Source: Squalus acanthias (taxonomy: Eukaryota). From it: 64,000 bases of DNA. The DNA is taken from NCBI GenBank assembly GCA_030390025.1, contig CM059432.1, positions 33,234,001 to 33,298,000 of the forward strand, read 5' to 3'. A model generated the notes under the pieces. That model saw only the letters and a list, made by a program, of their open reading frames with translations, was not told the DNA's origin and did no database searches. Of this stretch, positions 1,751 to 60,000 are shown one piece after another (position 1 is the first letter of the stretch; each line of letters starts with the position of its first letter). The translations under genes and the position numbers were made by a program.

Positions 1751-2929
1751 GTAGTTCAGAGCCACCAGTCAGCACAGCGCTGTGCACATGTGTAAGTAAA
1801 CACAAGTAGCACTCTTGTTGTTCCTGGTCAGAGAGTGATGAGTTGGCAGTGTTGTTTGGATCTGCTGACCAAGTGTTGCCCTGAGTAGGTTTCAGTCTCA
1901 AACCGGTATCTATAATATAAATGCATTGTTAGCCTGGTGTAATTCCGTGTTCTTCATAACCTGTACACGTAGGGCTAAATGTTGCAACAATAAAATCTGA
2001 CTGGATTAGTAATCCAGAGGCTGGACTCATCAACAGATGAGATGAATGACCACTTTTAGATCAAAATTCCTGCATGATGATTTCTGAGCATATTTGAGTG
2101 ACAGCAAATCAATCACCACAACAAATCTCTTGCCCTAATCATTTTTTCGTCTTTGTCAGCAAGTTTAATAAGGAAGTCTATGATCGTGTAATTGTAAAAT
2201 GGAAATGACTGTCTGATATTAGAGGATGAATGCTTAACTCGTTATTAAGTTCCTCTGCCTGCGACTTTAACTGAGGTTAACCTGTTCATTTAAAATAAAT
2301 TAATACCTCAGTTAAAATAGTGGACAGATGAATATCAAATGCATACACCATTATTGTACAATGATTTCCACCTTTTACTAAGTGCTCCTTAGAAGGGAAA
2401 AGCAACTTTAACTGTTTGTTTCTCAGTCTATCCTTGTTTTATGTTCCTTGGATCATTATTTAAAGAACTCCTTACCTCTCAGTCTATTCTTCATCCAACA
2501 GTCTACAGGCCTGTGAAACCCAAGCTTGGCGCCCCCTGACCACTACTGCCAAATTTATCTAACCTTCTCTTCTACACTTTTCAATCTTGGTGACATCCTG
2601 CACTGTAGGACTTGGACCTTTTAGCCAAAGTTAGAATCACAGAAGGAGTCCATTAGGCCCATCATGCCCGTGTAGGCTGTCTGAAAGAGCTATCGACTTA
2701 GCCCCATTCTCCTGCCTTCTCTCTGTGATCTTTTAAATATTTATTTGCTTCCATTGTAAAATCTCTTATGGATTCTGCTGCTGGAAGACCAGAACCAGGT
2801 TTGGTTTCTGGAGTAGAGATCAGACCAGTGGTATTTTACAGACAGTGATATCACAGTGTGGAGAGTATTTTAAAGAAGTTAAAAGTTCAGTTTAATTTTT
2901 TAGGGGTTTTCCCTCTCCGTCATTTCCAG

Positions 2930-3058
2930 AACCCAGAGACAAAACCCATCACGGATGCACTTGCGACCTTCATAGATCTGGACAAATGGATCCGACAGAC
3001 ATTGGATGTGGCATCTCTGACCAAGACCCTATGGAACTCTCTTGGAAGCAAGTTAACA
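2930..3058 (+). CDS. ALS2CL: ALS2CL exon (1st in window), end of DH-like region
   Basis: ttccag|NPETKPITDALATFIDLDKWIRQTLDVASLTKTLWNSLGSKLT|gtgagt; 129 nt, phase 0-0. Confidence 0.88.
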
Positions 3059-6000: not shown

Positions 6001-9000
6001 GGATTTGTCACTCTTCAGTGCCATTATTTTCTTCATTACTGTTATTTTGCTTACGATAATTTTATTGAGTCCCTGTCCCTGATTTCAATATTAGTTTCCT
6101 TGGGATTTCTGGCATGCTATCCTCTTCCCCTACTGTAAATATTGACGCAAAGTAATTATTCAACGTGTCCGCCATTTCCTTTTCATTGACAATATTACTG
6201 TTATCAGTTCTCAAGGGGCCAACATTGCTCCTGCCCACCTTTTTCCTAATATAATTGTAAAAATGTCTTTGTGTTGATTTTGATATCCCTTGCAAGTTTA
6301 TTTTATACTCCTTTTTTGTAGATCTTACTATCTGTTATTCTTTATCTACTCTATTGAATCCTATTATCATAAATACCTCAATTCGATCACCCCTCAATCT
6401 TCTATACTTAAGTTAATACAAGCTAAGTCTATGCAACCTGTACTCTTAATTTAACCCTTTAAGCCCTGGTATCTACTGGTGAATCAGCGCTGCACCCCAT
6501 CCAAGGCCAATATATGCTTTCTGAGATGCAGTGCCAAGAGCTGAACGCAGTACTCCAGCCTCCCTATTGTATTTCTACCCTCTTGAGATAAAAGCTGACA
6601 TTCCATTAGCCTTTTTGACTGCTGCTTTACCTCTATTAGTTTTTAGAGATTTATGTACATGAACACCTAAATCTCTTTGCTCCTCCAAAGTTTCAAGTTT
6701 CTCAGAAATTAGAAAGTACTCCAATTTGTCTTTCTTGGATCCAGAGTGGATGACCTCTCATTGAACTCTATTTGTCACAGATTTTCCACTCGCTTAATCT
6801 GTCTTTGTCCCTTTTTAACTGCTCCCATCTTCACCACTTACTGTGCCTCGTAACTTCGTGTCATCTGTAAACTTGAAAATACAATTCTCTTTCTTCATCC
6901 AAGTCATTAATAAATTGATATAGATGGGGAGCACTCTGCTGATGACCCAGGACAGATCCCTGGGGAACACCACTTCACATCCTATCAAAGGATATTCCCT
7001 GTATCTTTACTCTTTGTATCCTACCTCCCAACCAATTTCCAACCCATGTCACAATATTGCCTCCAATTCCATGCCCTTTCCTTTTTGCTAATCTGTTGTG
7101 TGGAAGCGCTCCCCAAACAGACTGGAAGCAATTACTGTAAATCTGGACCCCAAACGATAATATCGCTGGCCCTTCTTAGGAGATTGAAACCCCAAAGAGG
7201 ACTTACTTGACGTTCGTTGGGAACATTTTCTTAGCTGGGGAGCAGTGTGTTGTCCTCAGCATTTCGGATCAGGAACTACAGTGGTAAAATGAGCTAATCC
7301 CTATTCATTTGGATGGCATCCAAGGCTGGGGGCTGAAGCTTTGTTGCAGCTGCCACTTCCCATTCTCTATAATTAGCCTACTCTATCACTGCAACTTTCA
7401 AATAATGCAAATCTTTTTTTTAAAACTCCGGTGAGTTATTTTCTTTCTCTCTAATGCAAAGCAACGTTCCATTCCCTGGTCACAAGGTGACACATGAGCT
7501 GGTCACGGCCTGTGCTATTGGGAGAAACACAATCGAGTTAATGGGTCTTGGGGAAGTGTTTTCGGGGAAGGGGATTGGAGGAAGAGAAACTGGAAGGTGG
7601 CAAATAAGATTCTTTTGGTAATCACTGTCCCCCTTAATGACTAGGAGTTCTGCACCCCCAGCTTTCTCCCCAGAACTGAAATGAGGTCTCTTCAAATACA
7701 TGTCCAATCTTTTTGAAAGTTCCTATGGAATTTGATTCCACTACCCTTTCAGGTAGTGCGTTCCAGATCATAACAACCCTCTGCAAAATAATTTCTCCTA
7801 GTTTTCTCTCTAGTTCTTTTGCCAATTATTTTAAATCTTTGACCTCTGGTTATCAACATACTTGTCATGATGCGGAGATGCCGGTGTTGGACTGGGGTGG
7901 ACAAAATTGAGAGGTCGCACAACACCAGGTTATAGTCCAACAGTTTTATTTGAAATCACAAGCTTTCGGAGCTATCACTCCTTCCTCAGGTGAAGTAAAT
8001 TGGATACAGAATCGCCAGAGCATATATAGATGGAAAAAAAAGCATGTGTACTTTACAATTGCAGACCAATAAATTAAATCATCCTGACTATCTGCCGAGG
8101 TGTGATAAAGTTAATTAAGTCAGCCAGGAAGGTACCACATCAAAAGACATAGCAAGATACAACTGAGACAATGAGGTGTAGTCGCAGGGGTTCCAACGTG
8201 TCAAAAGCTGCCGTCTGTATGTAAAACGAAAAGCTTTAAAAAAAATTTACTTTTTTACTGGGAAAATTTTTACTTTTTTACTGGGAATCAAAAAAGTAAA
8301 TTTTTTTTAAAGCTTTTCGTTTTACATACAGACGGCAGCTTTTGACACGTTGGAACCCCTGCGACTACACCTCATTGTCTCAGTTGTATCTTGCTATGTC
8401 TTTTGATGTGGTACCTTCCTGGCTGACTTAATTAACTTTATCACACCTCGGCAGATAGTCAGGATGATTTAATTTATTGGTCTGCAATTGTAAAGTACAC
8501 ATGCTTTTTTTTCCATCTATATATGCTCTGGCGATTCTGTATCCAATTTACTTCACCTGAGGAAGGAGTGATAGCTCCGAAAGCTTGTGATTTCAAATAA
8601 AACTGTTGGACTATAACCTGGTGTTGTGCGACCTCTCAATTTTATCAACATACTTGCCAGAGGAAACAGTTTCTCGCTACTTGCTCTCTCAAAACCCCTC
8701 ATAATTTTGAATACCTCTTGGGTCTCTCCTTCGCCTTCTCAGCTCTAAGGAGAACAATCCCAGTTTCTCCAATCTCTCCATGTGATTCAAGTTCCTCATC
8801 AAAGTGTAGTTCCCAGAATTGTGCGCACAATACTCCAGCTGAGGCCTAACCAGTGACTTGTAAAGGATTAGCATGACTTCCTTGTTTTTGTATTCAATGC
8901 CCCTATTTACAAAGCAAAGTATCCCATATGCTTTCTTAAATGTCTTGCCAATTTCCCCTGCCACCTTCAAAGATTTGTGAATATGCACCCCCTGGTTCCT

Positions 9001-12000
9001 CTGCTCTTGCACCCGCTCAAAATAGTACCATTTAGATTATATTTATGTTGATTCTCCCAAAGTGCCTAATTTCCGAGTTATCCGCATTAAATTGCATCTG
9101 CCCATTTCACCAGTCTGTCTATGACCTCCTGAAGTCTGCTACTATCCTGCTCACTATTTACTATATTGCCAGGTTTTGTATCATCCACAAACTTCAAAAT
9201 TGTACTCCCTATACCCAAGTCCAGGTCATTTATATATAACAAGAAAAGCAATGGTCCTAATATAGACCCCTGGGGGACCCCGCTGTATATTTCTCTCCCA
9301 TCAGAAGAATATCCGTTCACCACTACTCTCTGCCTCCTATCTCTTAGCCAATTACGTACCCAAGCTACCACTGTCCCTTTAATCCCATGTGCTTCTATTT
9401 TCCGAATAAGTCTGTTATGTGTTACTTTACCAAATGCCTTTTATAAGTCCATATATGTAACATCTAATGCACTACCTACATTCATCAACCCTGTCTGTTA
9501 TTTCATCAAAGAACTCAATCTGGTTAATCAGACGATTTGCCTTTAACACATTTGTACTGGCTGTCCCTTATTAACCCATGCTTCTCCGAGTGAGAATTAA
9601 TTTTGTCCTTGACCTAGGTCTCTAGTAGTTACCCCCCTACAGACGTTGGACTGATTGGTCTGTAGTTACCAGGTTTAACCCTCTCCCCTTTTTTGAATAG
9701 GGGTGTAACATTTGCAGTCCTCTAGCACCACTCCCATATCCAAGGAAGATTGAAAGATTGTGGTCAGAGCTTCTATCTCCACCCTGGCTTCCCTTGGGAA
9801 CTTAGGATGCATTCTATCTGGACTGAGTGACTTGTTAACTTTGAGTGATGCCAACCTATTTAGCACATCCTTTCCATCTATTTTTATCCCATCCAGTATC
9901 TCTACTCCCCCCTCCTCTACTGTGATGCGGAGATGCCGGTGTTGGACTGGGGTGGACAAAAATGAGAAGTCGCACAACACCAGGTTATAGTCCAACAGTT
10001 TTATTTGAAATCACGAGCTTTCGGAGCGCTGCTTTACCTGATGAAGGAGCAGCGCTCCGAAAGCTCGTGATTTCAAATAAAACTGTTGGACTATAACCTG
10101 GTGTTGTGCGACTTCTCCTTTTTCTCCTCTACTGTGATATTAACTTCTTCCTGTTTTGTGAAGACAGATGCAAAGTACTCATTTTGACCCTCTGCCTTCA
10201 CAAGAAGAATTCCTTTTTTGTCCCTAATCAGCCCACCATTCCTTTTTAACTATCCTTTTAATTTTATGTTCGTAAAAGATTTTTGGGTTCCTTTTTATGT
10301 TACCCACTAATCTTTTCTCATACTCTCTCTTTGCCCTTTTGTATCCTTCTTCAATTCACCCCCGCACTCTCTGTATTCTGCCTGGTTTTCGACTATATTC
10401 TGTAGCTGACGTTTGTCATAAACCTCTTTTTTTTGGTTTTATTTTAACCTCTATTTCCTTTGTCATCCAGAGAGCTCTAGCATCATATAGGACCAAACTG
10501 CCTATTGAAGTCTTGTAAAATGTCTGTCTCTGGGGGGAAAATTCAATTCAATGCTAATTAATTGTTGAGCATCAGAAAGTTGCAGGAACTCATGCCAGAA
10601 ACGATATGAGTCAGTAGACAGATTCTGGCAAACTTGTCAGAGGCTCACAGATGCAGTACTCGGTGACCACAAGGTATTAAAACATCGTTTCCCCCTTTTT
10701 GATTTTACACAACCTTCCTATATTTGGACTTGTCAGTATGTCAAGACCCTGTTGATGTGTGTCATACTAATAGTTGGGCAAATTTTTTGGCAAGGAGTGA
10801 CATTTGAGTACTGTGAATTCTGCATTCACACTGCGTGGTGTGATTTGCTGCCCAAATTTTAATTTTCATACCCTGAGGGAACAAAACTGCTGGTCCCAGA
10901 GTGATTGGCAACAGATCACTTGCCCAAACTATACATCTACTATGCATGATACCATGCACTTCCCAATCTACTTATTCTCTAGCTTTACTTGCTGAAGTGT
11001 GCTATATTGTATAGGATCAACTTCCTTATCCATTGCCCCCGGAAACATCCATGCCCTGGGCACAATGGTCAGGAAAAATGGGGCTGACACCCATAACACC
11101 AGGTCTCTGCCCCCTTGACATCACCCGAGAATTTCTAGGTCTACCTGAGGAGGAGGGGAGGTGGGGGCAGGCCAAGCATGGTCTACACTGCAACAGGTGC
11201 AGGCCCGATGGTGACATGTTAATGAGTTGGGTGGGGGTGGATGCTTACAGCCCACCCATCTCATTTCCTGTTCTGTGGCCATGGGGCGTCCCACGCAGCT
11301 GCCTTTAATGGAGAACTCCCTCCCCTTGGACTGGAAACCCCCTTTTTTTCAATTTACCCATTTGATCTTCAGGAGTGTAATCAGACGATAATTGACACCG
11401 AGCCAAAGAAGGAGAAGTTAGGTGAGCTTGACCAAAAGCTTGGTCAAATAGGTAGGTGTTAAGCAGCATCTTGAAGGAGGAGAGAGTGGTGGTGAGGTGA
11501 AGAGGTTTGGGGAGGGATTTGAGAGCTTTGGGCCTAGGTGGCTGAATGCATGGGCACCAATGGTGGGGTGAAGAAAGTGGGAGATTGACGAGGCCAGATT
11601 TGGAGGAACACAGAGGTCTCGGAGGGCTGGAGGAGGTTACAAACATAGGAATGGGTGAAGTCATGGAGGGATTTAAATATGAGGAGAAATTTAAAATCGA
11701 GGCGTTTGTGGACTGGGAGCCTATGTAGATCCGTGAACACGAGTGATGGGTGAGCAGGAATTGGTACGGGTTAGGTTACGGGCAGCAGAGTTTTGGAAGA
11801 CCTCAAGTTGATGGAGGTTGAAAGATGGGAGGCCAGGCAGTGAAGCATTAGAATAATCGATTCTGGGGGTAACAAAAGGCATTGACTTAAAATGCTTCGA
11901 GTTATTTACCCACCTTGGAGCCACCAGGATCAGTGAAACATAACATAGAAACATAGAAGATAGGAGCAGGAGTAGGCCATTTGGCCCCTCTAGCCTGCTC

Positions 12001-15000
12001 CGCCATTCAATGCGATCATGGCTGATCATCCAAATTCAGAACCCTGTCCTCTCCCCATATCCCTTGATCCCTTTAGCCTTAAGAAATATATCCAACTCCT
12101 TCTTGAATATATTTAATGAATTGGCCTCTACTGCCTTCTGTGGTAGAGAATTCCACAGGTTCACCACTCTCTGGGTGAAGAAATTCCTCCTCATTTCTGT
12201 CCTAAATGGCTTACCCCTTATCCTTAGACTGTGACCCCTGGTTCTGGACTCCCCGACCATTGGGAACATCCTTCCTGCATCTAGTCTGTCCAGTCCTTTC
12301 AGAATTTTATAAGTTTCAATGAGATCCCCTCTCATTCTTCTAAACTCCAGCGAGTATAAGCCCAATCAACCCAATCTCTCCTCATACGTCATTCCTGCCA
12401 TCCCAGGTATCAGCCTGGTGAATCTTCGCTGAACTCCTTCCATGGCAAGAACATCCTTCCATGATAAGGTGACCAAAACTGCACACAATACTCAAGATGT
12501 GGTCTCACCAAGGCCCTGTACAACTGCAGCAAGACATCCTTGTTCCTGTACTCAAACCCTCTCGCTACGAAGGCCAACATAACATTTGCCTTCTTAACCG
12601 CCTGCTGCACCTGCATGCTTACCTTCAGCGACTGGTGCACAAGGACACCCAGGTCTCGTTGCACTTCCCCTTCTCCCAATCTATTGCCATTCAGATAATA
12701 ATCTGCCTTCCTGTTTTTGACACCAAAGTGGATAACCTCGCATTTATCCACATTATATTGCATCTGCCATGCTTCTGCCCAATCACCCAACCTGTCCAAA
12801 TCATCCTGGAGTTTCTCAGCATCCTCCTCACAGCACACACGCCCACCCAGCTTTGTGTCGTCTGCAAACTTGGAGATATTACATCTAGTTCCCTTGTCTA
12901 GATCATTAATATATATTGTGAATAGCTGGGGTCCAAGGACCGATCCCTGCGGTACCCCACTAGTCACTGCCTGCCACTCGGAAAAAGACCCGTTTATTCC
13001 AACTCTTTGCTTTCTGTCTGCCAACCAGTTCTCTATCCAAGTCAATACCTTGCCCCCAATCCCATGTGCCTTAACTTTACATGCTAATCTCTTATGCGGG
13101 ACCTTATCGAAAGCCTTTTGAAAGTCCAAATACACCACATCCACTGGTTCTCCCTTATCTATTTTACCAGTTACATCCTCAAAGAATTCCAGTAGATTAG
13201 TCGAGCACGATTTACCTTTTGTAAATCCATGTTGACTTTGTGAGACTGACAGCACAGCGTCTGACTTCATTCCTCGCCCCGTGATGAATGCCTCAGTACC
13301 CGAGGTTCATGGGACCTGTGGAACCGTACCCATAAAAGGTCAAATTCTTCCAGCGAGAAGGGGGAAATGGGGAAAAGCATACTCCGTGATGTACGTGTGG
13401 TGGCATGTTGAGAATGATATGGGATGGATCCTCGTACATTCTTCTGCAGCGTTTGTCTCCACGTTGGCTTACACGCAATTCTTTTCTTTTTAGGACCTCT
13501 TGTTTCTTCCAGAGCGCCGGCTTCGGGAAGACAGTAAAAACATTCCACTTTCCTGCGGAGATGGCAGGCTCTTGCTCTTTGACGACAGCCTGGTGATCAT
13601 TCAGGTAAAGGGCTCTGCATTCAGGGAAATGAGCAGAACATGGTTTCATTTGTCGATCTCGTTTGGTGCTCTGGTTTGGAAATAATGGAATGGAGAGCAC
13701 ACAAATATATGGAATATTGAATACTTGGGAGTGAGTTACAGGCTGGAATCTAATTGAAGGGTACAGATAGTTTCCACTGGAAATCGAGGCTACACAAGAG
13801 GGCAGAATTGGAGGAACGCAAAGGTCTCGGAGGCTTGTAGGGCCAGAGGATGTTACAGAGATAGGGAGGGGCGAGGCCATGGATTTGAACATAAGGATGA
13901 GCATTTTAAAATTGAGGCATTTGTTGACCAGGAGCCAGTGTAGGTCAGCGAGTACAGGGGCGATGCATGAATGGGACTTGGTGCGAGGTAGGATACAGGA
14001 TTTGGATGAGCTGCAGTTTATGGAGGGTGGAAGATAGGTGGTGAGCCAGGAGGTAACAAAAGCTTGGATGAGGTTTTCAGCAGCAGAGGGCTGAGGCAGG
14101 GTCAGAGATGGGCAATATTACAGAGGTGGAAGTAGGCGGTCTTTGTGACGGAGAAGATATGGGTTCGGAAGCTCAGCTCCAGGTCAAATAGGACGCAAGG
14201 TTAAGAACACTCTAGTTCAGTCTCAGACAATGACCAAGGAGGGAGAATGGAATCAGTGGCTAGGGAATGGAGTTTATGGTGGGGGCTGAAGACAATGGCT
14301 TTGGTCTTCCCAATATTTAATTGGGGGAAATTTCTGCTCATCCAGTACTGGATGTCGGGCAAGCAGTCTGACGACACCTCCGCTGCCTGTGTGTTAAGAG
14401 AGGTGATGGGTGTCATCAGTATACACGTGGAACCCGATGTGTATTCAGATAACATTGCCAAAAAGCAGCATGTAGATGTTAAATAGGAGGGCCAAAGTTA
14501 GATCCTTGGAGGACTCCAGAGGAAATGGTGCAGAAGTGGGAGGAGAAGCAATTGGATGAGATTCTCCGGCTACGACTGGATTGAATTGAATGGAACCAAA
14601 CTGAAGGCAATCCGATTCATCTGGACAGTCGAGAGAGGCTTTGGAGGAGGATGGTGTAATGTAGAGAAAAGTGGCAGTCAATTTGTGCACAGCAAAGTTC
14701 CACGAACAGCAAAAAAACAAATTATGTTTGTGATATTGGTTGAAGGATAAATATTGTCTAGGAGACCAAAACTTCCATTCTCAAATAGTACCATGGGATC
14801 TTTTACATCCACCTGAGAGGACAGTAGAGGCCTCAGTTTAGTGTCTCATCTCTCTTAGTCCTGCACTGAAGTATCAGCCTAGATTATATGCTCAAGTGTC
14901 CAGAGAGGGGCTTGACTCACAGCTTTTTGGCTTGGAGGTGGGAGTGCTACCATTGACCCAAGGCTGACAGTACTCAAGTACCGTCCTAGATTATGGGCTC

Positions 15001-18000: not shown

Positions 18001-21000
18001 ATCAAGCCCTGTCTATTCTAATCCCATTTTCCAGCACTTGCTCCGTAGCCTTGTATGCTATGGCGTTTCAAGTGCTCATCTAAATGCTTCTTGAATGTTG
18101 TGAGGGTTCCTGCCTCTACCACCCTTTCAGGCAGTGAGTTCCAGATTCCAACCACCCTCTGGGTGAAAAAGGTTTTCCTCAAATCCCCTCTAAATCTCCC
18201 GCCCCTTACCTTGAAACTATGCCCCCTGGTTATTGACCCCTCTACTAAGGGGAAAAGTTCCTTTCTATCTCCCCTATCTATGCCCCTCATAATTTTGTAC
18301 ACCCCAATCAGGTCCCCCCTCAGCCTTCTCTGCTCTAAGGAAAACAACCCCAGCCTGTCCAGTCTCTCTTCATAGCTGAAGCACTCCAGCCCAGGTAACA
18401 TCCTGGTGAATCTCCTCTGCACCCTCTCCAATGCAATCACACCCCTCCTATAGTGTGGCGCCCAGAACTGCACACGGTATTCCAGCTGTGGCCTAACTAA
18501 CGTTTTGTACAGCTCCATCATAACCTCCCTGCTCTTATATTCTATGCCTCGGCTAATGAAGGCAAGTATCCCACATGCCTTTTTAACCACCTTATCTACC
18601 TGTCCTGCTGCCTTCAGGGATCTATGTACATGCACACCAAGGTTCCTCTGTCCTTCCTAGGGTCCTACCATTCATTGTTTATTCCCTTGCCTTGTTAGTC
18701 CTCCCATAATGCATCACCTCACACTTTTCAGGGTTAAATTCCATTTACCACTGTTCTGCCCATCTAGCCAACCCGTCTATATCGTCCTGTAGCCTGAGGC
18801 TTCCCTCCTCGCTGTTTACCACTCCACCAATTTTTGTGTCATCTGCGAACTTACTGATCATACCTCCTACATTCATATCTAAATCATTAATGTACACTAC
18901 AAACAGCAAAGGACCCAGCACCAATCCCTGCGGTACACCACTGGACACAGGCTTCCAGTCACAAAAACAACCTTCGACCATCACCCTCTGCCTCCTGCCA
19001 CTAAGCCAATTTTGGATCCAATGTGCCAAATTGCCCTGGATCCCATGGGCTCTTACCTTCTTGACCAGTCTCCCATGCGGGACTTTGTCAAAAGCCTTAC
19101 TGAAGTCCATGTAGACTACATCAACTGCACTACCCTCATCCATACACCTAGTCACCCCCTCGAAAAATTCAATCAAATTGGTTAGACATGATCTTCCCCC
19201 TGACAAAGCCATGCTGACTATCCTTGATTAATCCTTGCCTCTCCGAGTGAAGACTAACTCTGTCCCTCAGAATTTTTTCCAATAATTTCCCTACCACTGA
19301 TGTTAGGTTCACTGGCCTATAATTCCCTGGTTTATCCCTACTACCCTTCTTGAATAATGGTACTACGTTAGCTGTTCTCCAGTCCTCTGGCACCTCCCTT
19401 GTGGCCAGAGAGGTTCTGAAAATTTGTGTCAGTGCCCCTGCAATCTCCTCCCTTGCCTCACACAGCAGCCTGGGATACATCTCGTCTGGGGATTTATCCA
19501 CTTTTAAGCCCGCTAAAACCGCTAGTACCTCCTCCCTCTCTAATTTGTTCAAGTATATCACAATCTCCCTGCCTGATTTCTATGCCTACATCGTCCTTCT
19601 CCACAGTGAACACAGATGCAAAATATTAATTTAAAACCTCACCTACATCTTCCGGCTCTACACACAGATTGCCACTTTGGTCCCTAATGGGCCCTACTCT
19701 TTCCCTGGTTATCCTCTTGCCCTTAATATACTTATAAAACACCTTGGGATTTTCCTTTATTTTGCCCGCCATTGTTTTTTCATGCCCCCTCTTCGCTCTC
19801 CTAATTTCTTTAAGTACCCCCCTGCACTTCCTATACTCCTTTGGGCTTCCACTGTTTTTAGTCCTTTGTATCTGCCAAAAGCCTCCCTTTTTTTCCTAAT
19901 CCATTCTTGTATATCCCTCGACATCCAGGGCTCCCTGGGTTTGTTGGTCCCACCCTTGACCTTTACGGGAACATGTTGGCGTTGTACTCTCTATTTCCTT
20001 TCTGAAAGACTCCCACTGCTCTGATGTGGATTTTCCTACAGTTGCTTATCCCAATCCACTTTGGCCAGATCCTGCCTTATCATATTAAAATCGGCCTTCC
20101 CCCAATTTAGAACCTTTATTTCCGGTCCATCTTTGTCCTTTTCCATGACTACCTTAAATCTCACTGAATTATGGTCACTGTCACCAAAATGCTCTCCTAC
20201 TGACACTTCTACCACTTGCCTGGCTACATTCCCTAGAATTAGGTCCAGTACCGCCCCCTCTCTTGTAGGACTTTCTACATGCTGGCTCAAAAAGCTCTCC
20301 TGGATGCACTTTAAGAATTCCGCACTCTCTAAGCCTTTCACACTCTGACTATCCCAGTTAATATTGGGGAAGTTGAAATCCCTACTATTATTACCCTATT
20401 GTTTCTACACTTCTCTGAGATTTGCCGACATATCTGTTCCTCTATCTCCCCCGACTGTTTGGGGGCCTATAGTACACTCCCAGCAAAGTGCTTGCCCCCT
20501 TTTTGTTTCTAAGTTCTACCCATATGGCCAGCATTCATCTCCCAACCAAAGAGATTAACTGGTCATTTATCTCCTTGTTGTTTGTGGAGTGTTGCTGTGA
20601 TCAAATTGGATACCTACGTAACAACAGTGACTACAGTTCAAAATAGTGCTTTGGGACATTCTGAGGACGAGATTTAAAAAAAAAATTCTTTCTTTTGTTT
20701 GCTATTCTTAGTGAAATCCTAAATTCATTCTTTTGGAAAGAAAGACTTGCATTAATATAGCGCCTTTCATGACCACCGGATGTCCCAAAGCACTTCAGTC
20801 AATGACGTACTTGTTGAAGTGTACTTACTGTTGTAATGCCGGAAAGGCGGCAGCCAATTTCTGCATAGGAAGCTCCCACAAACAGCAATGTGATAATGAC
20901 CAGATAATCTGTTCTTTTAGTGATGTTTTGGTGCACACGTCAAGTTAGTGAGCATAGGAATTCTTCCCAGAATATTAGTCTGAATAGAGGGTGCTTGACC

Positions 21001-24000
21001 CTAAGGCTAATTTTAACACTCTGCCAGGCAGAAAAGGGAGGTAGCGGCAATAAAACTGGACAGTGTATGCCGTGCACGCTTCATCCAGTTGAACCAGGGG
21101 GTGAAGAGTAAGAGGCCCCAAAAAGGTAAGTAATGATTTATTTTTATGGGGCCTGGAGATGTGGCCCCTGGACCTACCTGCCTGTGTGTTGGGTTGTTTT
21201 CCGAGCTACCCAATATAATGCCAGGCCGGAGCGGAGAGCTGCAGCGGGGATGCCCGTTTGGGGCATGCAGCTCACCAGTGCCACGTAAATGCGGCCTGGC
21301 CCCTGAAATGGACCGGGCATCCCGCTAGCAGAATCGGGCATCCAGCCCTCGCACTCTGTTAGCTGGCCGCCCGCCCGACAGTTAAAATCTACCCGTGTGT
21401 CGAATCCAATTTGAAAGTGCTGCACAACACCCATTGTAAAATCTTCTGAACCATATCCATCCTTTGCTTTGATGCACCCAGAATTAACTTAAAATGTGTT
21501 TGTTTCATTTGAAAATGGCGCGAATGTGAGGTGACAGCAGCATATCGTAGCTTTCCATCCAGGACAATTTCTGATACATTCCAGAACACACACGGGGTCA
21601 TTCTTGGCTCAGTGGTAGCACTCTCGCCTCTTTGAGTCAGAAGGTTGCAGATTGAAGCCCCACTCCAGGGACTTGAGCACATATTCTAGGCTTGACACCT
21701 TAGTGTTGTACTGAGGGAGTGCTGCACGGTCGGAGGTGCTGGCTTTTGGATGAGATGTTAAACCGAGGCCCCGTCTGCCCTTTCAGGAGGCTGTAAAAGA
21801 TTTCATGGCACTGTTCGAAGAAGAGCAGGACAGTTCTTCTGGTGCCCTGCCTAACACTTATCTCTCAAGGAACATTACCAAAAGCAGGGTATCTAGTTAT
21901 TTATCTCATTTGCTGTTTTGCGACATTGCTGTATGCCAATTGGCTGCTGTTTGTCTACATTATAACAGTGACTACACTTCAAAAAGTACTTATTTTGCTG
22001 TAAAGCCCGATGGGACATCCTGAGGTTGTGAAAGGTGCAATATAAATGCAAGTTCTTCTCGCATATTCATCCTATCCAACTCTGTTCTTGTGATTCACAG
22101 ATTGTGTGGTTTTGGAAGCTGAACCAAGCCATTCGGCAGCACTTGGATGGCAAGCTGGATTTCCCTTTGTGGGGTGAAGAAGGTGCTGAGAATTCATGCA
22201 ATGTGCCTGCTTATCGTTTTGCTGCCTACACTTTTATCAACAACCCTCGATTTAAGGATGCAGTCTATGAGGGAGACTGGTATTCAGGGAAACCCCACGG
22301 CAGGTTTGTTTGGAGTTTGTTAGCCTTTTCAACAAAGGCCTAACTATAAAGTACCAACATGCTGGAAATTGCTTGGAATGTTTATTGTGGTGCAGTGTGT
22401 TCTGAGCAAAATTAAATTTTGCTGCCTATTGCTGTTTCTTTTACTGACCTATATATGTACAGTGGAACCTTGTTTATATATACTCCCATTAACAGCCTTT
22501 GTATTAAACTGAGTGAAATGGCAGTGGTGAGATAAGTGCAACACACTGCAGAAAGCAGAGAGAGAGGAGCATTGATCAGCTGTAGGGGGATGAGAGAGGA
22601 GCATTGATCAGCTGTAGGGGAGTGAGAGAGGAGAGCATTGATCAGCTGTAGGGGCAGTGAGAGAGGAGAGCATTGATCAGCTGTAGGGGGATGAGAGAGG
22701 AGCATTGATCAGCTGTAGGGGAGTGAGAGAGGAGCATTGATCAGCTGTAGGGGCAGTGAGAGGAGCATTGATCAGCTGTAGGGGGAGTGAGAGAGGAGCA
22801 TTGATCAGCTGTAGGGGGCAGTGAGAGAGGAGCATTGATCAGCTGTAGGGGGAGTGAGAGGAGCATTGATCAGCTGTAGGGGCAGTGAGAGGAGCATTGA
22901 TCAGCTGTAGGGGGCAGTGAGAGGAGCATTGATCAGCTGTAGGGACAGTGAGAGAGGAGCATTGATCAGCTGTAGGGGGAGTGGGAGAGGAGCATTGATC
23001 AGCTGTAGGGGCAGTGAGAGGAGCATTGATCAGCTGTAGGGGGAGTGAGAGGAGCATTGATCAGCTGTAGGGGCAGTGGGAGAGGAGCATTGATCAGCTG
23101 TAGGGGCAGTGGGAGAGGAGCATTGATCAGCTGTAGGGGCAGTGGGAGAGGAGCATTGATCAGCTGTAGGGGCAGTGGGAGAGGAGCATTGATCAGCTGT
23201 AGGGGCAGTGAGAGAGGAGCATTGATCAGCTGTAGGGGCAGTGGGAGAGGAGCATTGATCAGCTGTAGGGGGAGTGGGAGAGGAGCATTGATCAGCTGTA
23301 GGGGGAGTGGGAGAGGAGCATTGATCAGCTGTAGGGGGAGTGGGAGAGGAGCATTGATCAGCTGTAGGGGGCAGTGGGAGAGGAGCATTGATCAGCTGTA
23401 GGGGGAGTGGGAGAGGAGCATTGATCAGCTGTAGGGGGCAGTGAGAGAGGAGCATTGATCAGCTGTAGGGGCAGTGGGAGAGGAGCATTGATCAGCTGTA
23501 GGGGGAGTGAGAGAGGAGCATTGATCAGCTGTAGGGGCAGTGAGAGAGGAGCATTGATCAGCTGTAGGGACAGTGAGAGGAGCATTGATCAGCTGTAGGG
23601 ACAGTGAGAGGAGCATTGATCAGCTGTAGGGGCAGTGGGAGAGGAGCATTGATCAGCTGTAGGGGGAGTGAGAGGAGCATTGATCAGCTGTAGGGGCAGA
23701 GAGAGAGGAGCATTGATCAGCTGTAGGGGCAGTGGGAGAGGAGCATTGATCAGCTGTAGGGGCAGAGAGAGAGGAGCATTGATCAGCTGTAGGGGCAGTG
23801 GGAGAGGAGCATTGATCAGCTGTAGGGGGAGTGAGAGGAGCATTGATCAGCTGTAGGGGCAGTGGGAGAGGAGCATTGATCAGCTGTAGGGGCAGAGAGA
23901 GAGGAGCATTGATCAGCTGTAGGGGCAGAGAGAGAGGAGCATTGATCAGCTGTAGGGGCAGTGGGAGAGGAGCATTGATCAGCTGTAGGGGCAGTGGGAG

Positions 24001-27000
24001 AGGAGCATTGATCAGCTGTAGGGGCAGAGAGAGAGGAGAGATCAGCGGCAGCATTGGTGCTTCTTACATTATGGTTTTCATATTTTGCTTTTCAAATCTT
24101 TTGCCAGCTTATTGCTAACTCAGTCAAAGATCTGAAAAGTTTCTTGGTGGTTAATGGAGATTCCATCCTTTCTGTCTAGCTTTATTATCTCTTGGTTTGT
24201 CCAAGCACACCTAGGCCACTAATTTAAATATCTTGTCAGGTGCAATGCACTTCAGATCACAACATAGGACCAGGAGGAGGCCATTTAGCCCCTCGAGCTT
24301 GTTCCGCCATTCAATGAGATCATGGTTGATCTGCGATCTAACTCCATATATACCCGCCTTTGGCCCATATCCCTTAATAACTTTGGTTAACAAAAATCTA
24401 TCAATCTCAGATTTAAAATTAACAATTGATCTAGCATCAATTGCCGTTTGTGGAAGAGAGTTCCAAAGTTCTACCACCCTTTGTGTGTAGAAGTGTTTCC
24501 AAATTTCACTCCTGAAAGGTCTGGCTCTAATTTTTAGACTATGCCCCCTCGTTCTCGAATCCCCAACCAGCAGAAATAGTTTCTCTCTATCTACCCTATC
24601 TGTTCGCCTTAATATCTTGAAAACTTTGACCAAGTCTTTAACCTTTTAAATTCCAGGGAATACAACCCTAGTTTGTGTAATCCTTCCTTGTATTTTAAAA
24701 ATTGGCGTCCGGGTATCATTCTGGTAAATTTACTTTGCACTCCCTCCAAGCCAATGTATCTTTCCTAATGTGTGGTGCCCAGAATTGCTTGCATTACTCC
24801 ATGTGTGGTCTAACCAGGGCTTTGTATAACTGCAGCATAACTTCTGCCCCCTTGTATTCTAGTCCTCTAGATATAAAAGCTACCATTCCATTAGCCTTTT
24901 TTATTCTCTGTACCTGTTCATCACAAGTTGAAGAACATGTTGAGAACCATCTTAATGGCATGACCAGGTTCAAGTGTTCTCCTGGTTGGATGAAAAACTG
25001 GTCTTTGGAACTGTTTTTAAGCCAGTGCAGACCACATGGATCTTAACTCCAGAACTGACAAGTTTACAAGTTTATTTTTTTATGTTTGCAACAATAGGTT
25101 TTATAAATATGGCTATGGCGTGCAAAAGGAAAGCGGTAACACTAAACTTATACCATTTATTGGTTAGGTAGCAGTTAGAACGTTGTCAAGTCTTGGTTGC
25201 CTGACTTGAGGAAGGATGTCAGTGCCATGGAGCAGGTGCAGAAGATGGAATGCATTGCCTGAAACGGTTGTGGAAACAGATTCAATAGTAACTTCAAAAG
25301 GGAATTGGATATATACTTGAAAAGGAAAACATTTGCAGGGATATCAGGAAAGAGCAGGAGAGTGGGACTAATTGGATAGGTCTTTCCAAGAGCCGGCACA
25401 GGCATGATGAGCTTAATGGTGCTTTCTGTGCTGTAAGATTGAATGAAGAGAAGCGTATTATGATGATGACTCATTTCTGTGATCGGGCCCTTCAGATGAA
25501 GAGCTTTCACTCCCAGGACGTGCAAGTTGGAAAATCGTGGGCCCTCGATCCCTGATGGATGGAAACTCGCGAGGTGTGGACTCACGATTTTCTGACCTGC
25601 GCTGCTTCCCAATGCTGCTCATCACCGGGTGAGCCCGAATGTGGAATTGGCCCCTTCGTTCCTACTTTGCCACCATCTTGAATTTTCTTGGACCAGGGTT
25701 GGCAGTACGTTAATAACCGGTATTTTCATTGCTTTAGTGGAATCATGAAATGGCCGGATGGACGAAATTATGCTGGACATTACGAAGGTGGTCAGGAACA
25801 TGGGTAAGAAAAGCTCTGTGTGAAAATAGTCAAATATAACTTTTCCGATGCAAGGAAATTTGTCATTTCTTTGATCAAGTGTGAAGGGCTTGAAATAACA
25901 ACAGAAAATGCTGGAAACACTTAGCAGGCTAGCAGCATCCGCGGAGAGAGAAACAGGAGAGAGAAACAGAGTTGACATTTCAGGTCTGTGACCCTTTGTC
26001 GGAACTGGAAAAAGTTAGGGATGTAAACGGTTTTAAGCAGGTGCAGAAGCAGGGGAAGGGGAGGAAGGAATAGAAGGGACGCTCTGTGCTGAGCTGGAAG
26101 GCAGGAGAGATTAAGGGGTAAAAATTCACTTGGTTGCGCCACCCGTTAGCGCCTTAAGAGGGCGCTAATGGGGCGCAAAGCCGCTAACGCCCGGGCGCAG
26201 CGATGTTTGCGCCGCTCGAGAACTTAACTTGAGATTGTGCGGCGGCGCTAAAACTTACCGCTGCGACCACCTGCGCGCGCAGATTGTGACGTCATTCCAT
26301 GGTGCAACGCCCTTGGGGCGCCCCGTAGCGGAAATTGAGTGGCGCCCCCTGCCTTACCGCCTGGCGCTTCCAACGACCAGAAGACTGGAACGCTATCAAT
26401 CGCTGTGGGGCTGGGGGGGGCGCTATTTAAAGGGGGCCTCTTCCTGTCTTTTATTGTTGGTGGCATTTCTGAACTACGCATTCTGAGAGAGAGAGGGAGA
26501 GACTTCTGGAGAGATTCAACGTTGTGTGAAGGAGTTTTGGGTACTGAGCAGCACTTTGCAGGTTCATTTTGATTTGCCATTCCTTGTATCGATTTAGCAG
26601 AGACCGTGGGAGCTGCACTCTGAGCTCTTTGCCTGGTGCTCTCCATTGTTCTTTCCAGCACATTTGATGTGCAAGTCTCTCCAGGCCGAGATTCAAGGCA
26701 GCAATGAACAGGATGTGGATGGAAAGCAAGATTAACCATCCCCTTTAAGAACTGGCCCGTGCCATTGTGTGTGTGTTCCATTGCTGACTGACATTACATG
26801 AGCTTCGCCAGCGCTCCGAGTTAGCGCCTCACTGCTCGGCCTTTGCGCCTTAGAGAGGTGTGCAGCGCCTGCTTTAGCGCTCCACTCACCTCCCGGGGCG
26901 GTAAAAGTGAAGTTTCCCGTCAGTGCCGATAATTAGCGCCAGGCGCTAATATTTGCGTCCGGACGATATTTGCGCCCCAAATGGGGCGCGACCTAATTTC

Positions 27001-45000: not shown

Positions 45001-48000
45001 CACGTCTCTGTAATGGCTATCAGATCATAATGCGGAGATGCCGGTGTTGGACTGGGGTGGACAAAATTGAGATCATACCCATTTATTTCTATTTGTGCTG
45101 TCAATTCATCTATCTTGTTACGAATGCTGCATGCGTTCAGATATAGAGCTTTTAATTTTGTCTTTTTACCATTTTTCCCTACTCTGGCCCCTCTTTCTGA
45201 TGCACTCTTGTGTGTATACACTCTGTCCCTTCCTGTCACACTCTGGTTATCATTACCCCTATCGCTACCCTGCACTTTTGCCTTCTCATTTTTCTTTGAC
45301 TTTTTAAATTTCCGCTCAGCGTATCCCTCCCCCCTTCACTATTTAGTTTACAGCCCTATCTATTTGATTCACCAGGACACTGGTCCCAGCCTGGTTAAAA
45401 TGAAGCCTGTCCCGATGGAACAGCCCCCTCTTATCTCAGTACTGGTGCCAGTGCCCCAAGAATCTAAACCCATTTCTCCCACACCAGTCTTTGAGCCACT
45501 CATTCATTTCTCTGATCTTATTTACCCTATGCCAATTTTCACGTGGCTCAGGTAGTAATCCAGAGATTATTACCTTTGTGGTTCTGCTTTTTAATTTAGC
45601 CCCTAGCTGCTCATACTCCCTCAGCAGAACCTCTTTCTTTGTCCTACCTATGTCGTTAGTACCTACATGGACCACGACAACTGGATATTTCCCCTCCCAC
45701 TCTAAGTTCCTCTCCAGCCCAGAGGAGATGTCCTTTACCCTGGCACCGGGCAGGCAACACAGCCTTCGGGACTCACGCTCTTGGCTGCAGAGAACAGTGT
45801 CTATCTGTAACTATTCTGTCCCCTACCACTACCACATTTCTTTTTGCTCCCACCACTTGAATGGCTCCCTGTACCACGGTGCTTTGGTCAGTTTGCTCAT
45901 CCTCAATGCAGTCCCTGCTCTCGCCCACACAGAGAGCAAGAATCTCGTAACTGTTGGACAAGAGCAAGGGCTGAGGCTCCTCCACCACTACCTCCTGGGT
46001 CCCCATACCTGCCTCGCTTGTAGTCACACCCACCTGTTCCTGACCACGGACCAAATTTGAATTAATTAATCTAAGGGGTGTGACTGCCTCCTGGAACACA
46101 GCGTCCAGGTAACTCTCCCCCTCCCTGATGTGTCCAGTGTTTGAAGCTCGGACTCCAGCTCATCAACACGGAGCTGAAGCTCCTCAAGCAACCAACACTT
46201 ACTGCAAATGTGGTTGCCGTCGACCTCAATGGTGTCCATCAGCTCCCACATGTTGCAGCAGTAACACATCGCCTGCCCTGCCATTTCTAAGGTATTTAAT
46301 TAATTGTTTAAGTTTTGGACGTTTCGTTTTTAATCCCGGCTCTTAATTTAAACCAATGCCCAAGAAAAGGCGAGAAATACTGAACAACCAATCGCTTCCC
46401 TGCTTTCCTGTGATGTCACTCCTTGTTTTTTGTTCTTGAAATTGCCGGTTCCCTCACAGGTCGGTCCGCTCCCACTGCTGCTCCCAATAGCTCGGTCTGG
46501 GCCTCGAGCCTCGGGCTTTATTTACTCGCTCCGCTTTCACCGGTTCCCTCACAGGTCGGTCCGCTCCCGCTGCTGCTCCCAATAGCTCGGTCTGGGCCTC
46601 GAGCCTCGGGCTTTATTTACTCGCTCCGCTTTCACCGGTTCCCTCACAGGTCGGTCCGCTCCCACTGCTGCTCCCAATAGCTCGGTCTGGGCCTCGAGCC
46701 TCGGGCTTTATTTACTCGCTCCGCTTTCACCGGTTCCCTCACAGGTCGGTCCGCTCCCGCTGCTGCTCCCAATAGCTCGGTCTGGGCCTCGAGCCTCGGG
46801 CTTTATTTACTCGCTCCGCTTTCACCGGTTCCCTCACAGGTCGGTCCGCTCCCAATAGCTCGGTCTGGGCCTCGAGCCTCGGGCTTTATTTACTCGCTCC
46901 GCTTTCACCGGTTCCCTCACAGGTCGGTCTGCTCCCACTGCTGCTCCCAATAGCTCGGTCTGGGCCTCGAGCCTCGGGCTTTATTTACTCTCTCCGCTTT
47001 CACCGGTTCCCTCACAGGTCGGTCCGCTCCCACTGCTGCTCCCAGTGATACCCTTGCCTAACAAAAATCTATTGTTTACAGTCTTGTCACGAAGCTTCGG
47101 GTCTTACCACAGAGCTTTGGGAGCCACACACAATTTAAATCCGTGTTCCTATTTGTTTATATGTATCTCAAATTTATGAAACTAACAGTTCTGATTTACA
47201 ATTTATCTATCAAAGAGGTAACAGCACTAAGAACTGCCTTTCCCAAACTTCCAGGTCCACAACACTCAAACGGGACAAGCCAGTGAGCAAGTAATATAAG
47301 CCCAAATTGGTCCGGTGTCCAGGCCATATTTCTAGGATTTCCAGGGTCTGGGAGCCAAACGTGGCTAATGGGCCTCAGTTTGGACACCCGTCGTCTAGGA
47401 TAAGCAGCTACTTTCTAATGATCTTCAGGAAATCACAGCCAGTAAATGGTCATTTTGTCTACAACGGTTCTACTGGTCTCCTGCAGTTGCTCCAGCAGAC
47501 CGATGGAATCCTCTGGGAAATGGCGTAAATAGCTATTTTAGAAAGAAAGCAACCTCATGATGTTCTAAAGCGCTTTACAGCCAATGAAGTACTTTTGAAA
47601 TGTAGTCACTGTTGTCACAACAGCAGCCAATTTGCGCACAACAAGGTCGGCATACAGCAATGTTTTAATGATGTTGGTTGAAGGATAAGTATTGGCCAGA
47701 ACACGGGAGAACTCACCTGCTCCTCTTCCCATGGCATTATTTCAATCTTATACGTCCACATAAGTGGGCAGATGGGACCTTGGTTTAACGTCGCATCTGA
47801 AAGACGGCACCATCGTCAGTGCAGAACTCCCTCTGTACTGGTACTGATGCTGTTTTACACTATTTCTCTTGAGATGCTACCATCTTCCTGCCAGAGTTAC
47901 GGTGGGAGATGGGTAGAACAACCATGGAACTTCAAGGTCAACATACAAACTAGAAGCAACTTTAGTATTAGGATATTTCATGTGGCAATTCATTTCTATT

Positions 48001-57000: not shown

Positions 57001-60000
57001 TCTAGTTGAATTTTTTGAGGTCACCAGCATGGCGGATAGGGGAGTATCTATTGATGTCTAGAAGAAGGCATTCAATAAGGTTCCGCACAATTAGCAAAAA
57101 TGAGAGCATGTGGAATTGGAGGTAATCTTGTGATATGGGTTGGTAATTGGTTGAGATAAAGGGTTCGTTCTCTGATTGGCGGGATGCGACAAGTGGCATT
57201 ACCCAGCGATGTGATCGGGGGCCACAGCTCTTCACCATATATATTAATGATTCAGATGTAGGAATAAAAAGTTGTATACCAAAGCTTGTAGATAAGAGAA
57301 TACGTTAAGAGGAACAGTAAGTTGTGTAGGTGGGAGTAGGAAGTTACAGAGACCAATTGAGTGGGCAAATTATGGCAGATGACGTTCAATGTGGGGAACT
57401 GAGAGGTCATCCACTTTGAATCTGAGACACGGAATAATTTCTTAATAGTGACAGACTAGGAGCAGCAAAGGTGTCCATGCAGACATCAGTAAAAGCTAGT
57501 ACACAGGTACAAAAAGTAATCAAGGCTAATGGAATGTTATCCTTTATCGCAAGGGGACTGAAATACAAAGGGGAGGAAGTTATGCTTCAGTTGTACAGAG
57601 CCTTGGCTAGACCCCATCTAGAGCACTGCATTCAGTTTCAGGCACCGAACATGAGGAAAGATGTATTGGCCTTGGAATGGGTACAGTGCATATTTACCAC
57701 AATGATACTAGGGCTTTTCAGTTTCAGGCACCGAACATGAGGAAAGATGTATTGGCCTTGGAATGGGTACAGTGCATATTTACCACAATGATACTAGGGC
57801 TTAAAAGGTTAAATTATGAGCAGGTTGTATAAACTTGGCTTGTATTCCCTTGAGTTGAGAAGGTTGATGGATGATCTAATGGAGGTATTTAAAATTATTA
57901 AGGAATTTAATATTTTGTGATTTGTTTTTAATTCGGGAGAGTTGACAACCCTGTGGCGATGAGTGAAGCTGAGAGGCAATTTGGGAGCCTCCCCATATCC
58001 TTCAAACTGTCACCTTCCCACACAGAGGATTTTGTATGACAGCAGCTGGGATTGTAATGGTGGATCAACAGTTCATGTTTGTGCAACACTAAGGCTGGAA
58101 AATCTTGTGTTTTGTATACAGAGAATCTCCATTGTGAAAGATGTCTGCTTCACTTCCGCCATCTTGTGTTTCCAAAAGATAAGGTGAGCACTGAGAAGGG
58201 GACTGCTGGTTTTATTGAACGGGCGTGTCAGTGAAAGGACAGTATTGAAGTGATACCATGATGTGTAGCACCAACCTTTTCAGAGAAACATCTTTTCATA
58301 CCTATAGTAACACAGGCCTTTGCGTCATGATGTTCCTTCGAGACTACCCAGTTCATCACAGTATTGATGTACCATCTCCTTTAATACTCAAAGCACTGAC
58401 CCCTGAGAGTTACCATCTCCTTTAACACTCGTGGCACTAAACCCCTAGAATTGCTATCCCTTTAACGGTTGTCACCTGAGAATTGAACATAAACAAAGCT
58501 TCATAACCTCATAAGAAATAGGTGCAGGACTCGGCCATATGGCCCCTCGATCCTGTAGTTTTGACAAATGTAAACCTCTCTCTGCAGTACTACGGCAGAC
58601 CCTCAGGATAAGCTGGACACCATCATGAAAACCTATCATGAGATTGAGAGCACGGTGACCCGAGTGCTAGAGAGGGAGTACAACCTTCCCATGGATGACC
58701 TGCTGCCTCTGCTGGTTTACGTGGTTTCCAGGGCAAGGTAAGAGGCAGAAGTTTCATATTTTTCTGATGGGCTGAACGAGTCATAACACCTGGGATGTGT
58801 TTTGAAAAGAAGGCACTGCTTTGGAAAACCATTGACTAGTGAGCATAATTTCTTACAAATTAGGACGTTACCCCTTTAGGAATGTAGGATCAAACACATG
58901 AGCATTAACAAGTTAGATGCTGTGATGGGATTGGGGGGGGGTCCTTTTTTTTCTGATGGGCTCAATGGCCTTTCCCATTAATGTCCAACTGCTTGTAAAA
59001 TGATTCCTGGACTTTTGCCACCATTCCCGTACCTAGAAGTTCATTCCATCTGTTGATCACTGGTGAGTAACATCCTATCAGTTTGAAGTTTGCCTTACAC
59101 CAATTTCAGCCTGTGTACCTTGTCCCATTTCCACACTTAAATTGGAAATAATGTCCCAGAATAAACTTTTCTATACCGTTTACTATCCTATAGACCTACC
59201 TCTGCAGTTGCCTCCTCCGCTGCTCTGGGAGTGTTTGATGGGGCAGTGTAGAGGGAACCTTACTCTGTATCTAAATCCTGCTGTACCTGACCTAGGAATG
59301 CTTAATCAGTGTCTAATCCATGTTTGAACTAACCTGGGATTGTTTTAGCACGCACAGAAGATGGTGTTTTGCTGAAATACATTTTCATGCATTGCCATCA
59401 CCCAGCACTATTGCAAAACAAAAATGACTCAGATTTAACTTTCATTTTCTCTTCACTATAGAATCCTGCACCTGGGTGCAGAACTCCACTTAATACGAGA
59501 CATGATGGATCCTTCCACTGAGGGCGGGATGAATGACTTCCTGCTTACTGCTCTTGACGTGAGTTAATATAGAAGGCACAGCCTATGTAGTAGCAGCAAT
59601 CCTTTCTGGTAGCACAAAGATAAGTGGAATTGGTCAGGGGTTTCGAAGTGAAGTTGAAAAGTGCCCCAAATGAAACAAAGGGTAACCTACTCTTGGTGTA
59701 CAATTTAAGCATTTAATCCCACCATGGCAGTTTGAGAATTTGAATTCAGTTTCATTAAAAAGCTGGTATTGACCATGAAGCTGTCGGATTGTTGTAAAAA
59801 TGCAACTGATTCACCAATGCCCTTTAAGGAAGTAAGCCTGCCGTCCTTGGCCTATATGTGACTCCAGCAATGCGGTTGACTCTTACTTCTCTCAAAGGTG
59901 GCCTGGCATGACACTCAGTAGCAACTAGGGATGGGCAATAAATTCTGTCCTTGCCAGCGAGAATGAATAAAAAAAAAAAATCCACACTTTGTTCAAAAAG

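Follow-up and report, generated by a model that had tools for sequence, protein, structure and literature searches.

The ALS2CL Locus and the Interrupted LINE

The window (the whole 64-kb stretch of shark DNA that was analyzed) carries the ALS2CL locus. An open frame at 2849-3031 has nine protein matches; all of these (9/9) are named ALS2 C-terminal-like and come from cartilaginous fishes. MORN and VPS9 domains are found further along the + strand. One ALS2CL exon is located at 2927..3058 (+ strand, 93% identity over 44 aa to P0003). The next exon match downstream is at about 13494..13643 (+ strand, 74% identity over 50 aa to the same protein), its boundaries being approximate. The element that is the subject of this report (7850-8656) has exon matches on either side. 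Judged by these protein matches, its position inside an ALS2CL intron, already assigned by the first-pass annotation, is confirmed. The ALS2CL introns also contain tandem repeat arrays, detected by self-BLAST at 22555-24046, 46445-47044 and 57631-57802, with offsets of about 32, 95 and 86 nt, respectively.

Contigs from reads were used for comparison. The stretch or part of it is contained in 20/24 listed runs (nine studies, several organisms), and four runs were aligned to 7560-8325. The contigs were aligned at 88% likeness, and only one of the two arms of the element could be covered. Rows X19-X24, which contain a small share of the stretch, were left out.

The element interrupts an old LINE relic (7690..9455, - strand), which we take to be of the CR1 type from its motifs. 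The relic has a match to Pfam RVT_1 at 9087-9437 (E 1.6e-13). Three other copies of this LINE in the window match both flanks and run on uninterrupted, without the element. Contigs of the host LINE go from 7852 into sequence resembling the right flank in 4/4 aligned runs. Elsewhere, host-LINE copies seem to bear the element at several positions within about 65 nt (7774-7838, contigs). This spread suggests a favoured AT-rich region with no single fixed site.

A Palindrome with a One-Sided Tail

The left arm (7903..8256, - strand) and the right arm (8290..8643, + strand) are exact reverse complements over 354/354 nt. The pairing can be extended to 360 nt at 99% identity, with mismatches at 7899 and 7902, both outside the 354-nt arms. 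Among the three inverted pairs in the 64-kb window (at least 40 nt, arms no more than 300 nt apart), this is the longest. The element is enclosed by a target site duplication (TSD) of 15 nt, the left unit (7850..7864) being identical to the right one (8642..8656), which overlaps the right arm by 2 nt. Arms and TSD had been read in the same way by the first-pass annotation, which had also reported a tail on one side and a 33-nt spacer with a duplication. The tail is indeed unpaired and present on the left only, with a length of 38 nt (7865..7902, - strand) rather than about 37 nt. It lies outside the arms, represents the 3' end of the element's sense strand and is common to two further copies in the window (copies 2 and 3, see below). 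An ATG is found at 7868-7866, at the tail end on the element's sense strand. Copy 1 (7850-8656) codes for no ORF with reverse transcriptase (RT) and GIY-YIG.

The unpaired centre (8257-8289) has 33 nt. A 23-nt tandem duplication (8240-8262 and 8263-8285, 91% identity) has its second unit there. Base 8290 is common to both head-to-head copies. The left arm is the paired part of a longer, tailed and 5'-truncated copy, and the right arm is a shorter, tail-less and likewise 5'-truncated copy.

The palindrome at 7850-8656 is real. An assembly or library artefact in the form of a fold-back chimera would be in line with the perfect identity of the arms; moreover, no contig listed for the four runs (7560-8325) bridges the locus's own junctions, and only one arm was coverable. 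However, the inversion stops at the TSD and does not include the tail, and one and the same LINE runs on in both flanks. Copy 2 follows the same plan with different alleles, and a contig from run X1 has an opposite-strand joint elsewhere. An artefact is therefore hardly credible.

Further Copies in the Window

Copy 2 (9923..10123) is located in the same intron. It has the same tail, short head-to-head arms and a TSD of 15 nt (9912-9926 and 10124-10138). Its tailed arm extends to 10033 and stops inside helix II of a hammerhead motif; its tail-less arm is 14 nt longer and contains one whole motif (10034-10070, + strand). Copy 2 folds inside the hammerhead and, therefore, has the whole motif on one strand only. 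Copy 1 has the reverse asymmetry, with the tailed arm being 33 nt longer. The tail-less arms of both copies end on the identical base, and wherever copies 1 and 2 differ in their alleles, the two arms within each copy agree. When compared with contigs from reads, copy 1 has minority alleles at 7907, 7913 and 8194, and these are present in both arms.

Copy 3 (45030..45069, - strand) consists of the tail and a few bases only (40 nt, 47/48 identity to the tail). It ends a few bases past the proximal terminus (see below) and is enclosed by a TSD of 8 nt (45022-45029 and 45070-45077). It may represent an early stop, or its hairpin may have been lost by deletion. The tail ends of copies 2 and 3 have up to 4-5 nt in common with their target sites. 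Additional BLAST matches at 18285-18309 and 60921-60936 (E 0.07 and 0.86) are treated as chance.

Arm length varies among the three copies (354 nt, about 75 nt, none), as does the length of the TSD (15, 15 and 8 nt in 3/3 copies). The fold point also varies, being at 8256/8290 in copy 1, inside the hammerhead in copy 2 and at 8018/8075 in a contig from run X1, which changes strand there. This opposite-strand joint is another fold-back copy. A DNA transposon of the foldback or MITE type with 354-bp terminal inverted repeats was considered because long perfect inverted repeats are enclosed by a TSD. Such an assignment, which we regard as extremely improbable, is at odds with the 38-nt tail between TSD and arm on one side only, with the variation in arm and TSD lengths and with the presence of a hammerhead motif. 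The element was not assigned to this class, given its one-sided tail and a TSD of non-fixed length.

An Abundant Repeat Family with Two Termini

The sequence belongs to a very abundant repeat family. Summed depth is 9.5-20 in the unique flank and about 4-11e5 over the arm body including the centre (run X1); the centre itself has about 4.6-4.9e5. It rises to 3.6-5.3e6 (X1) over the terminal 110 nt, about 3-10 times that of the arm body. Such summed depths do not represent a copy number. This difference in depth shows that one end is common to several upstream sequences.

Contigs pass through the centre to 8290 and continue with concordant letters (five in X1, one in X16). The X16 contig, which is from another organism, has 221 nt matched with two other letters and three gaps and runs on for at least 115 nt beyond 8290 in the upstream direction. 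Therefore, the presumed spacer and its 23-nt duplication are family sequence: the feature reported earlier is present, but it is not a separate spacer. The left copy is just 33 nt longer, and 8257..8290 (- strand) is its unpaired 5' end, as indicated by depth and by the read-through contigs. The 30 loose letters beyond 8290, inspected by eye on the sense strand, have one open frame with a stop at 8290-8288. In these letters, the sole difference between X1 and X16 is silent in that frame. This is a weak hint at an ORF ending at 8290-8288.

Many unrelated flanks join the element at 7866-7867 in X5 and X6 (53 and 61 contigs in X5, with an agreement of 0.37-0.39, among the best 21 of 728 loose ends). 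From host-LINE sequence, 8/13 joints enter the element, two at 7864-7868 and six at 7901-7909, the sides being short (20-26 nt). Because these joints cluster in two places, the family has two termini: a distal one, at which the tail ends, and a proximal one, at which the tail-less arms end.

Several variants were observed in single runs. One X5 contig (depth 102, side 20 nt) joins 7943 to 8091, skipping 147 nt including the entire hammerhead; this is possibly an internally deleted subfamily without ribozyme. An X1 contig (depth 88) reaches 7899 and goes back to 7868, with 15 other letters in between, possibly representing tandem tails. The exchange T>C at 8222, which is A>G on the element's sense strand, is found only in X6, a run which is RNA by guess (597/6491 depth, 19 contigs), and is absent from three DNA runs. 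It could be due to editing or could be an allele. Indels at 8033 and 8237 are likewise confined to X6.

Might the copy at 7850-8656 have been truncated from a separate non-autonomous and non-coding family (SINE- or retrozyme-like) that makes use of Penelope proteins? The greater depth of the terminal 110 nt fits this proposal, as do the stops in the hammerhead-to-tail frame, which are found in copies 1 and 2, and the internally deleted variant with the 7943-8091 joint. In addition, excerpts of 10.64898/2026.07.22.740005 propose retrozymes as derivatives of Penelope-like elements (PLEs). However, retrozymes are tandem direct repeats, while the shark copies are head-to-head, and the sequence upstream of 8290 runs on in X16 as described. 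Fold points vary, so that the hairpin is not the mobile unit. Overall, such a family is unlikely. The first-pass annotation had suggested a distinct family of non-coding fold-back elements; this is not borne out, because the fold point differs among copies and the spacer is family sequence.

Hammerhead Motifs and Predicted RNA Folding

The element was also reported to have a hammerhead ribozyme on each strand. We made a minimal-hammerhead descriptor for this analysis, comprising core, helix II, GAAA, UH and a 4-bp helix I. It has three matches in the 64-kb window (+8557, -7989 and +10038) and none in 200/200 dinucleotide shuffles. The motif in the left arm is located at 7956..7993 (- strand, match -7989), with a predicted cut after 7960, and that in the right arm at 8553..8590 (+ strand), with a predicted cut after 8586. 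The right-arm motif consists of a 4-bp helix I, the core, one extra base, a 5-bp helix II, GAAA, a palindromic AGCU and U at position 17. All characters of a minimal type I hammerhead are found (core CUGANGA and GAAA, UH, helix II, helix I and the palindromic 15.2-16.2 positions). Core position 7, a free position, is occupied by G in copy 1, by U in copy 2 and by C in a loose-end variant. Helix II is kept among the hammerhead variants, and the loops differ. Position 17 is U in copy 1 and C in copy 2, with U being the least favoured base at this position.

The motif sequence is thus present in each arm, but other analyses do not lend it support as a ribozyme. In Rfam, there is no match to a hammerhead family at E<=5 over 7000-9500, nor at E<=10 over 8500-8645. 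Below-threshold matches of the microRNA type are caused by the hairpin itself and were rejected, as were one weak lncRNA and one weak snoRNA match. Shuffled sequences fold as well as the hammerhead motifs do (z -1.24 and 0.01). When the right arm is folded alone, helix II is predicted with a probability of 0.95-0.98 and helix I with 0.02.

For a + strand transcript of 7800-8720, the predicted mean probability of arm pairing is 0.997, and that of helices I and II is 0.0. The 354-bp duplex in the ALS2CL pre-mRNA, proposed earlier, is thus also predicted here. Both hammerheads are predicted to be fully sequestered in read-through RNA by the pairing of the arms, so the motifs reported on each strand would be unable to fold there. 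The duplex would form because transcription of either strand yields the antisense arm first and the sense hammerhead after it. In addition, the available text of PMC4209133 reports that a dimer is needed for cleavage by minimal hammerheads and that a single motif did not cleave. With the arms paired, the antisense arm made first and one sense motif set against the published need for a dimer, self-cleavage at this locus would be unlikely.

Origin of the Insertion

We consider it very probable that the two identical head-to-head partial copies of this abundant repeat are one insertion of a Penelope-like retroelement. The element has inverted pseudo-LTRs, variable 5' truncation, a one-sided 38-nt tail, two 3' termini and a TSD of variable length. 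The Penelope-type architecture recognized by the first-pass annotation (inverted arms, one-sided tail) is borne out. Against this assignment stand the lack of a linked RT or GIY-YIG ORF and of an Rfam hammerhead match. Because no RT/GIY-YIG partner was found in metagenome, prokaryote-genome and viral contigs or among longer proteins, membership among Penelope-like elements is based on structure. The tail pattern has 0 matches in metagenome, prokaryote-genome and viral contigs. For the translated terminal frame, metagenome contigs contain no relative; longer proteins do not either, the latter being weak evidence.

For the route by which two copies came to lie head-to-head, we tentatively favour a double target-primed insertion, which we rate at somewhat below an even chance. 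A protein dimer would use a distal and a proximal start on one RNA, and the products would be end-joined. In this process, the RT/GIY-YIG protein of an autonomous element would cut the target with a 15-nt stagger. One end would prime reverse transcription at the distal start site (7865), which would give rise to the tail, and the other end would prime at 7903, the proximal site located 38 nt inwards, without giving rise to a tail. Both cDNAs would stop early (426 and 354 nt) and would be joined via a 1-nt microhomology. The product would be a dead copy devoid of a long ORF. When transcribed, the ALS2CL pre-mRNA would form a 354-bp duplex with the hammerheads silenced by arm pairing. One and the same reaction would yield copies with long arms, with short arms or with the tail alone. 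This proposal has a parallel in the anole element covered by PMC11167929 (in the sections available), for which cleavage and extension of both target strands are shown. Its protein is predicted to dimerize, and its tail is delimited by two adjacent start sites of reverse transcription.

The same Penelope element might instead have acquired its second arm by fold-back of one tail-primed cDNA or by self-priming on an antisense template. This differs from double priming in the route only, and we consider it rather unlikely. It readily explains the perfect arm identity and the private alleles shared by both arms, and the 23-nt duplication in the centre would offer an alternative pairing register. 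Self-priming on an antisense template has been proposed for rotifer Penelopes in the part of PMC3846280 that is available, which also counts against two primings. Later gene conversion could also account for the arm identity. However, the extra 14 nt in the tail-less arm of copy 2 cannot be supplied by copying of a tailed cDNA, although copy 1 is explained. The head-to-head centres have an overlap of 1-2 nt, to be compared with the palindromes of 15-38 nt described in the excerpts of PMC3846280, and the one fixed end base of the tail-less arms is left unexplained by fold-back. That the tail-less arm exceeds the tailed one in copy 2 and falls short of it in copy 1 fits two separate primings better than simple fold-back. 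The two-priming step is based on two informative copies. A stem is predicted around the proximal start site, with no advantage over shuffles (z -0.48 and -1.40).

The 0 differences in 354 nt bound the divergence of the arms at less than about 0.85% (rule of three), and the TSD units are identical. Sequence with 98% likeness is present in another organism. Calling the insertion young is reasonable, with the restriction that the arms of a palindrome can be homogenised.

As an object, the insertion is ordinary for Penelope-like elements. Its use lies in the evidence it provides on how inverted repeats and one-sided tails are formed, with three copies in one window having two fixed ends and arm asymmetry in both directions. 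If double priming is true, the abundant shark copies would settle the origin of Penelope inverted repeats and tails, and introns would be seeded with long, perfect dsRNA in which the element's own ribozyme is switched off. Should many transcribed introns in sharks contain such perfect hairpins, these would amount to a large supply of long dsRNA on which editing or small-RNA pathways could act.

Comparison with Known Systems

In the titles and abstracts of the literature, no description of this shark repeat family was encountered; most subscription papers were beyond reach and may describe it. The element is likely a tidy example of an arrangement that has already been described and not a new kind of element. 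Excerpts of PMC8557442 present inverted 5'-truncated copies together with a 30-40-bp tail at one end as standard for Penelope-like elements. According to the available part of PMC2377424, Penelope copies in D. virilis carry a 34-bp repeat where the ORF starts, and their inverted repeats vary in size. PMC4350176, as far as its accessible text goes, reports PLEs in all species studied.

The shark element resembles units of endonuclease-bearing PLEs (Craig et al. 2021, PMC8557442; Arkhipova et al. 2013, PMC3846280; both available in part) in its 5' truncation, its inverted head-to-head neighbour and a tail of 30-40 nt at one end. TSD length is variable in the shark copies as well as in rotifer PLEs, with 8-10 bp in the rotifer cases described and 15 nt in copy 1. 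Unlike the units covered in these excerpts, the shark element has no ORF between its arms. Also, its centres have 33 and 14 unpaired nt with an overlap of 1-2 nt, whereas long palindromes are described for rotifer PLEs.

Compared with the hammerheads of metazoan PLEs (Cervera and De la Pena 2014, PMC4209133, from its accessible text), the shark motif shares a 4-bp helix I, the conserved core, an extra base before helix II, a G-C closing pair, the palindromic 15.2-16.2 positions and the absence of helix III. That paper describes pairs of minimal hammerheads on opposite strands at a distance of 100-700 bp, and the core starts in the shark element are 568 nt apart on opposite strands. Helix II has 5 bp in the shark motif but 6-8 bp in the Schistosoma and Drosophila cases given there. 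Position 17, which is U in copy 1, is a further difference from these hammerheads. Sharks go unmentioned in the accessible text.

PAc, a Poseidon-type PLE of Anolis carolinensis (Frangieh et al. 2024, PMC11167929, in the sections available), has two adjacent termini that delimit a tail downstream of the hammerhead and an AT-rich target, as does the shark element. From the predicted cut to the distal end, the distance is about 92-95 nt in the shark element and 85-92 nt for the PAc site given. The ORF of PAc starts at stem II, whereas the shark frame has a stop there and an ATG at the tail end.

Animal non-LTR retrozymes (10.64898/2026.07.22.740005, known from excerpts) are also non-coding, carry a type I hammerhead and are kin to the pLTRs of PLEs; they are reported from the one chondrichthyan sampled. 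They are, however, organized as tandem direct repeats with at least two hammerheads on the same strand. The shark element has no tandem and one motif per strand, and its copies are head-to-head, so that it was not assigned to the non-LTR retrozymes.
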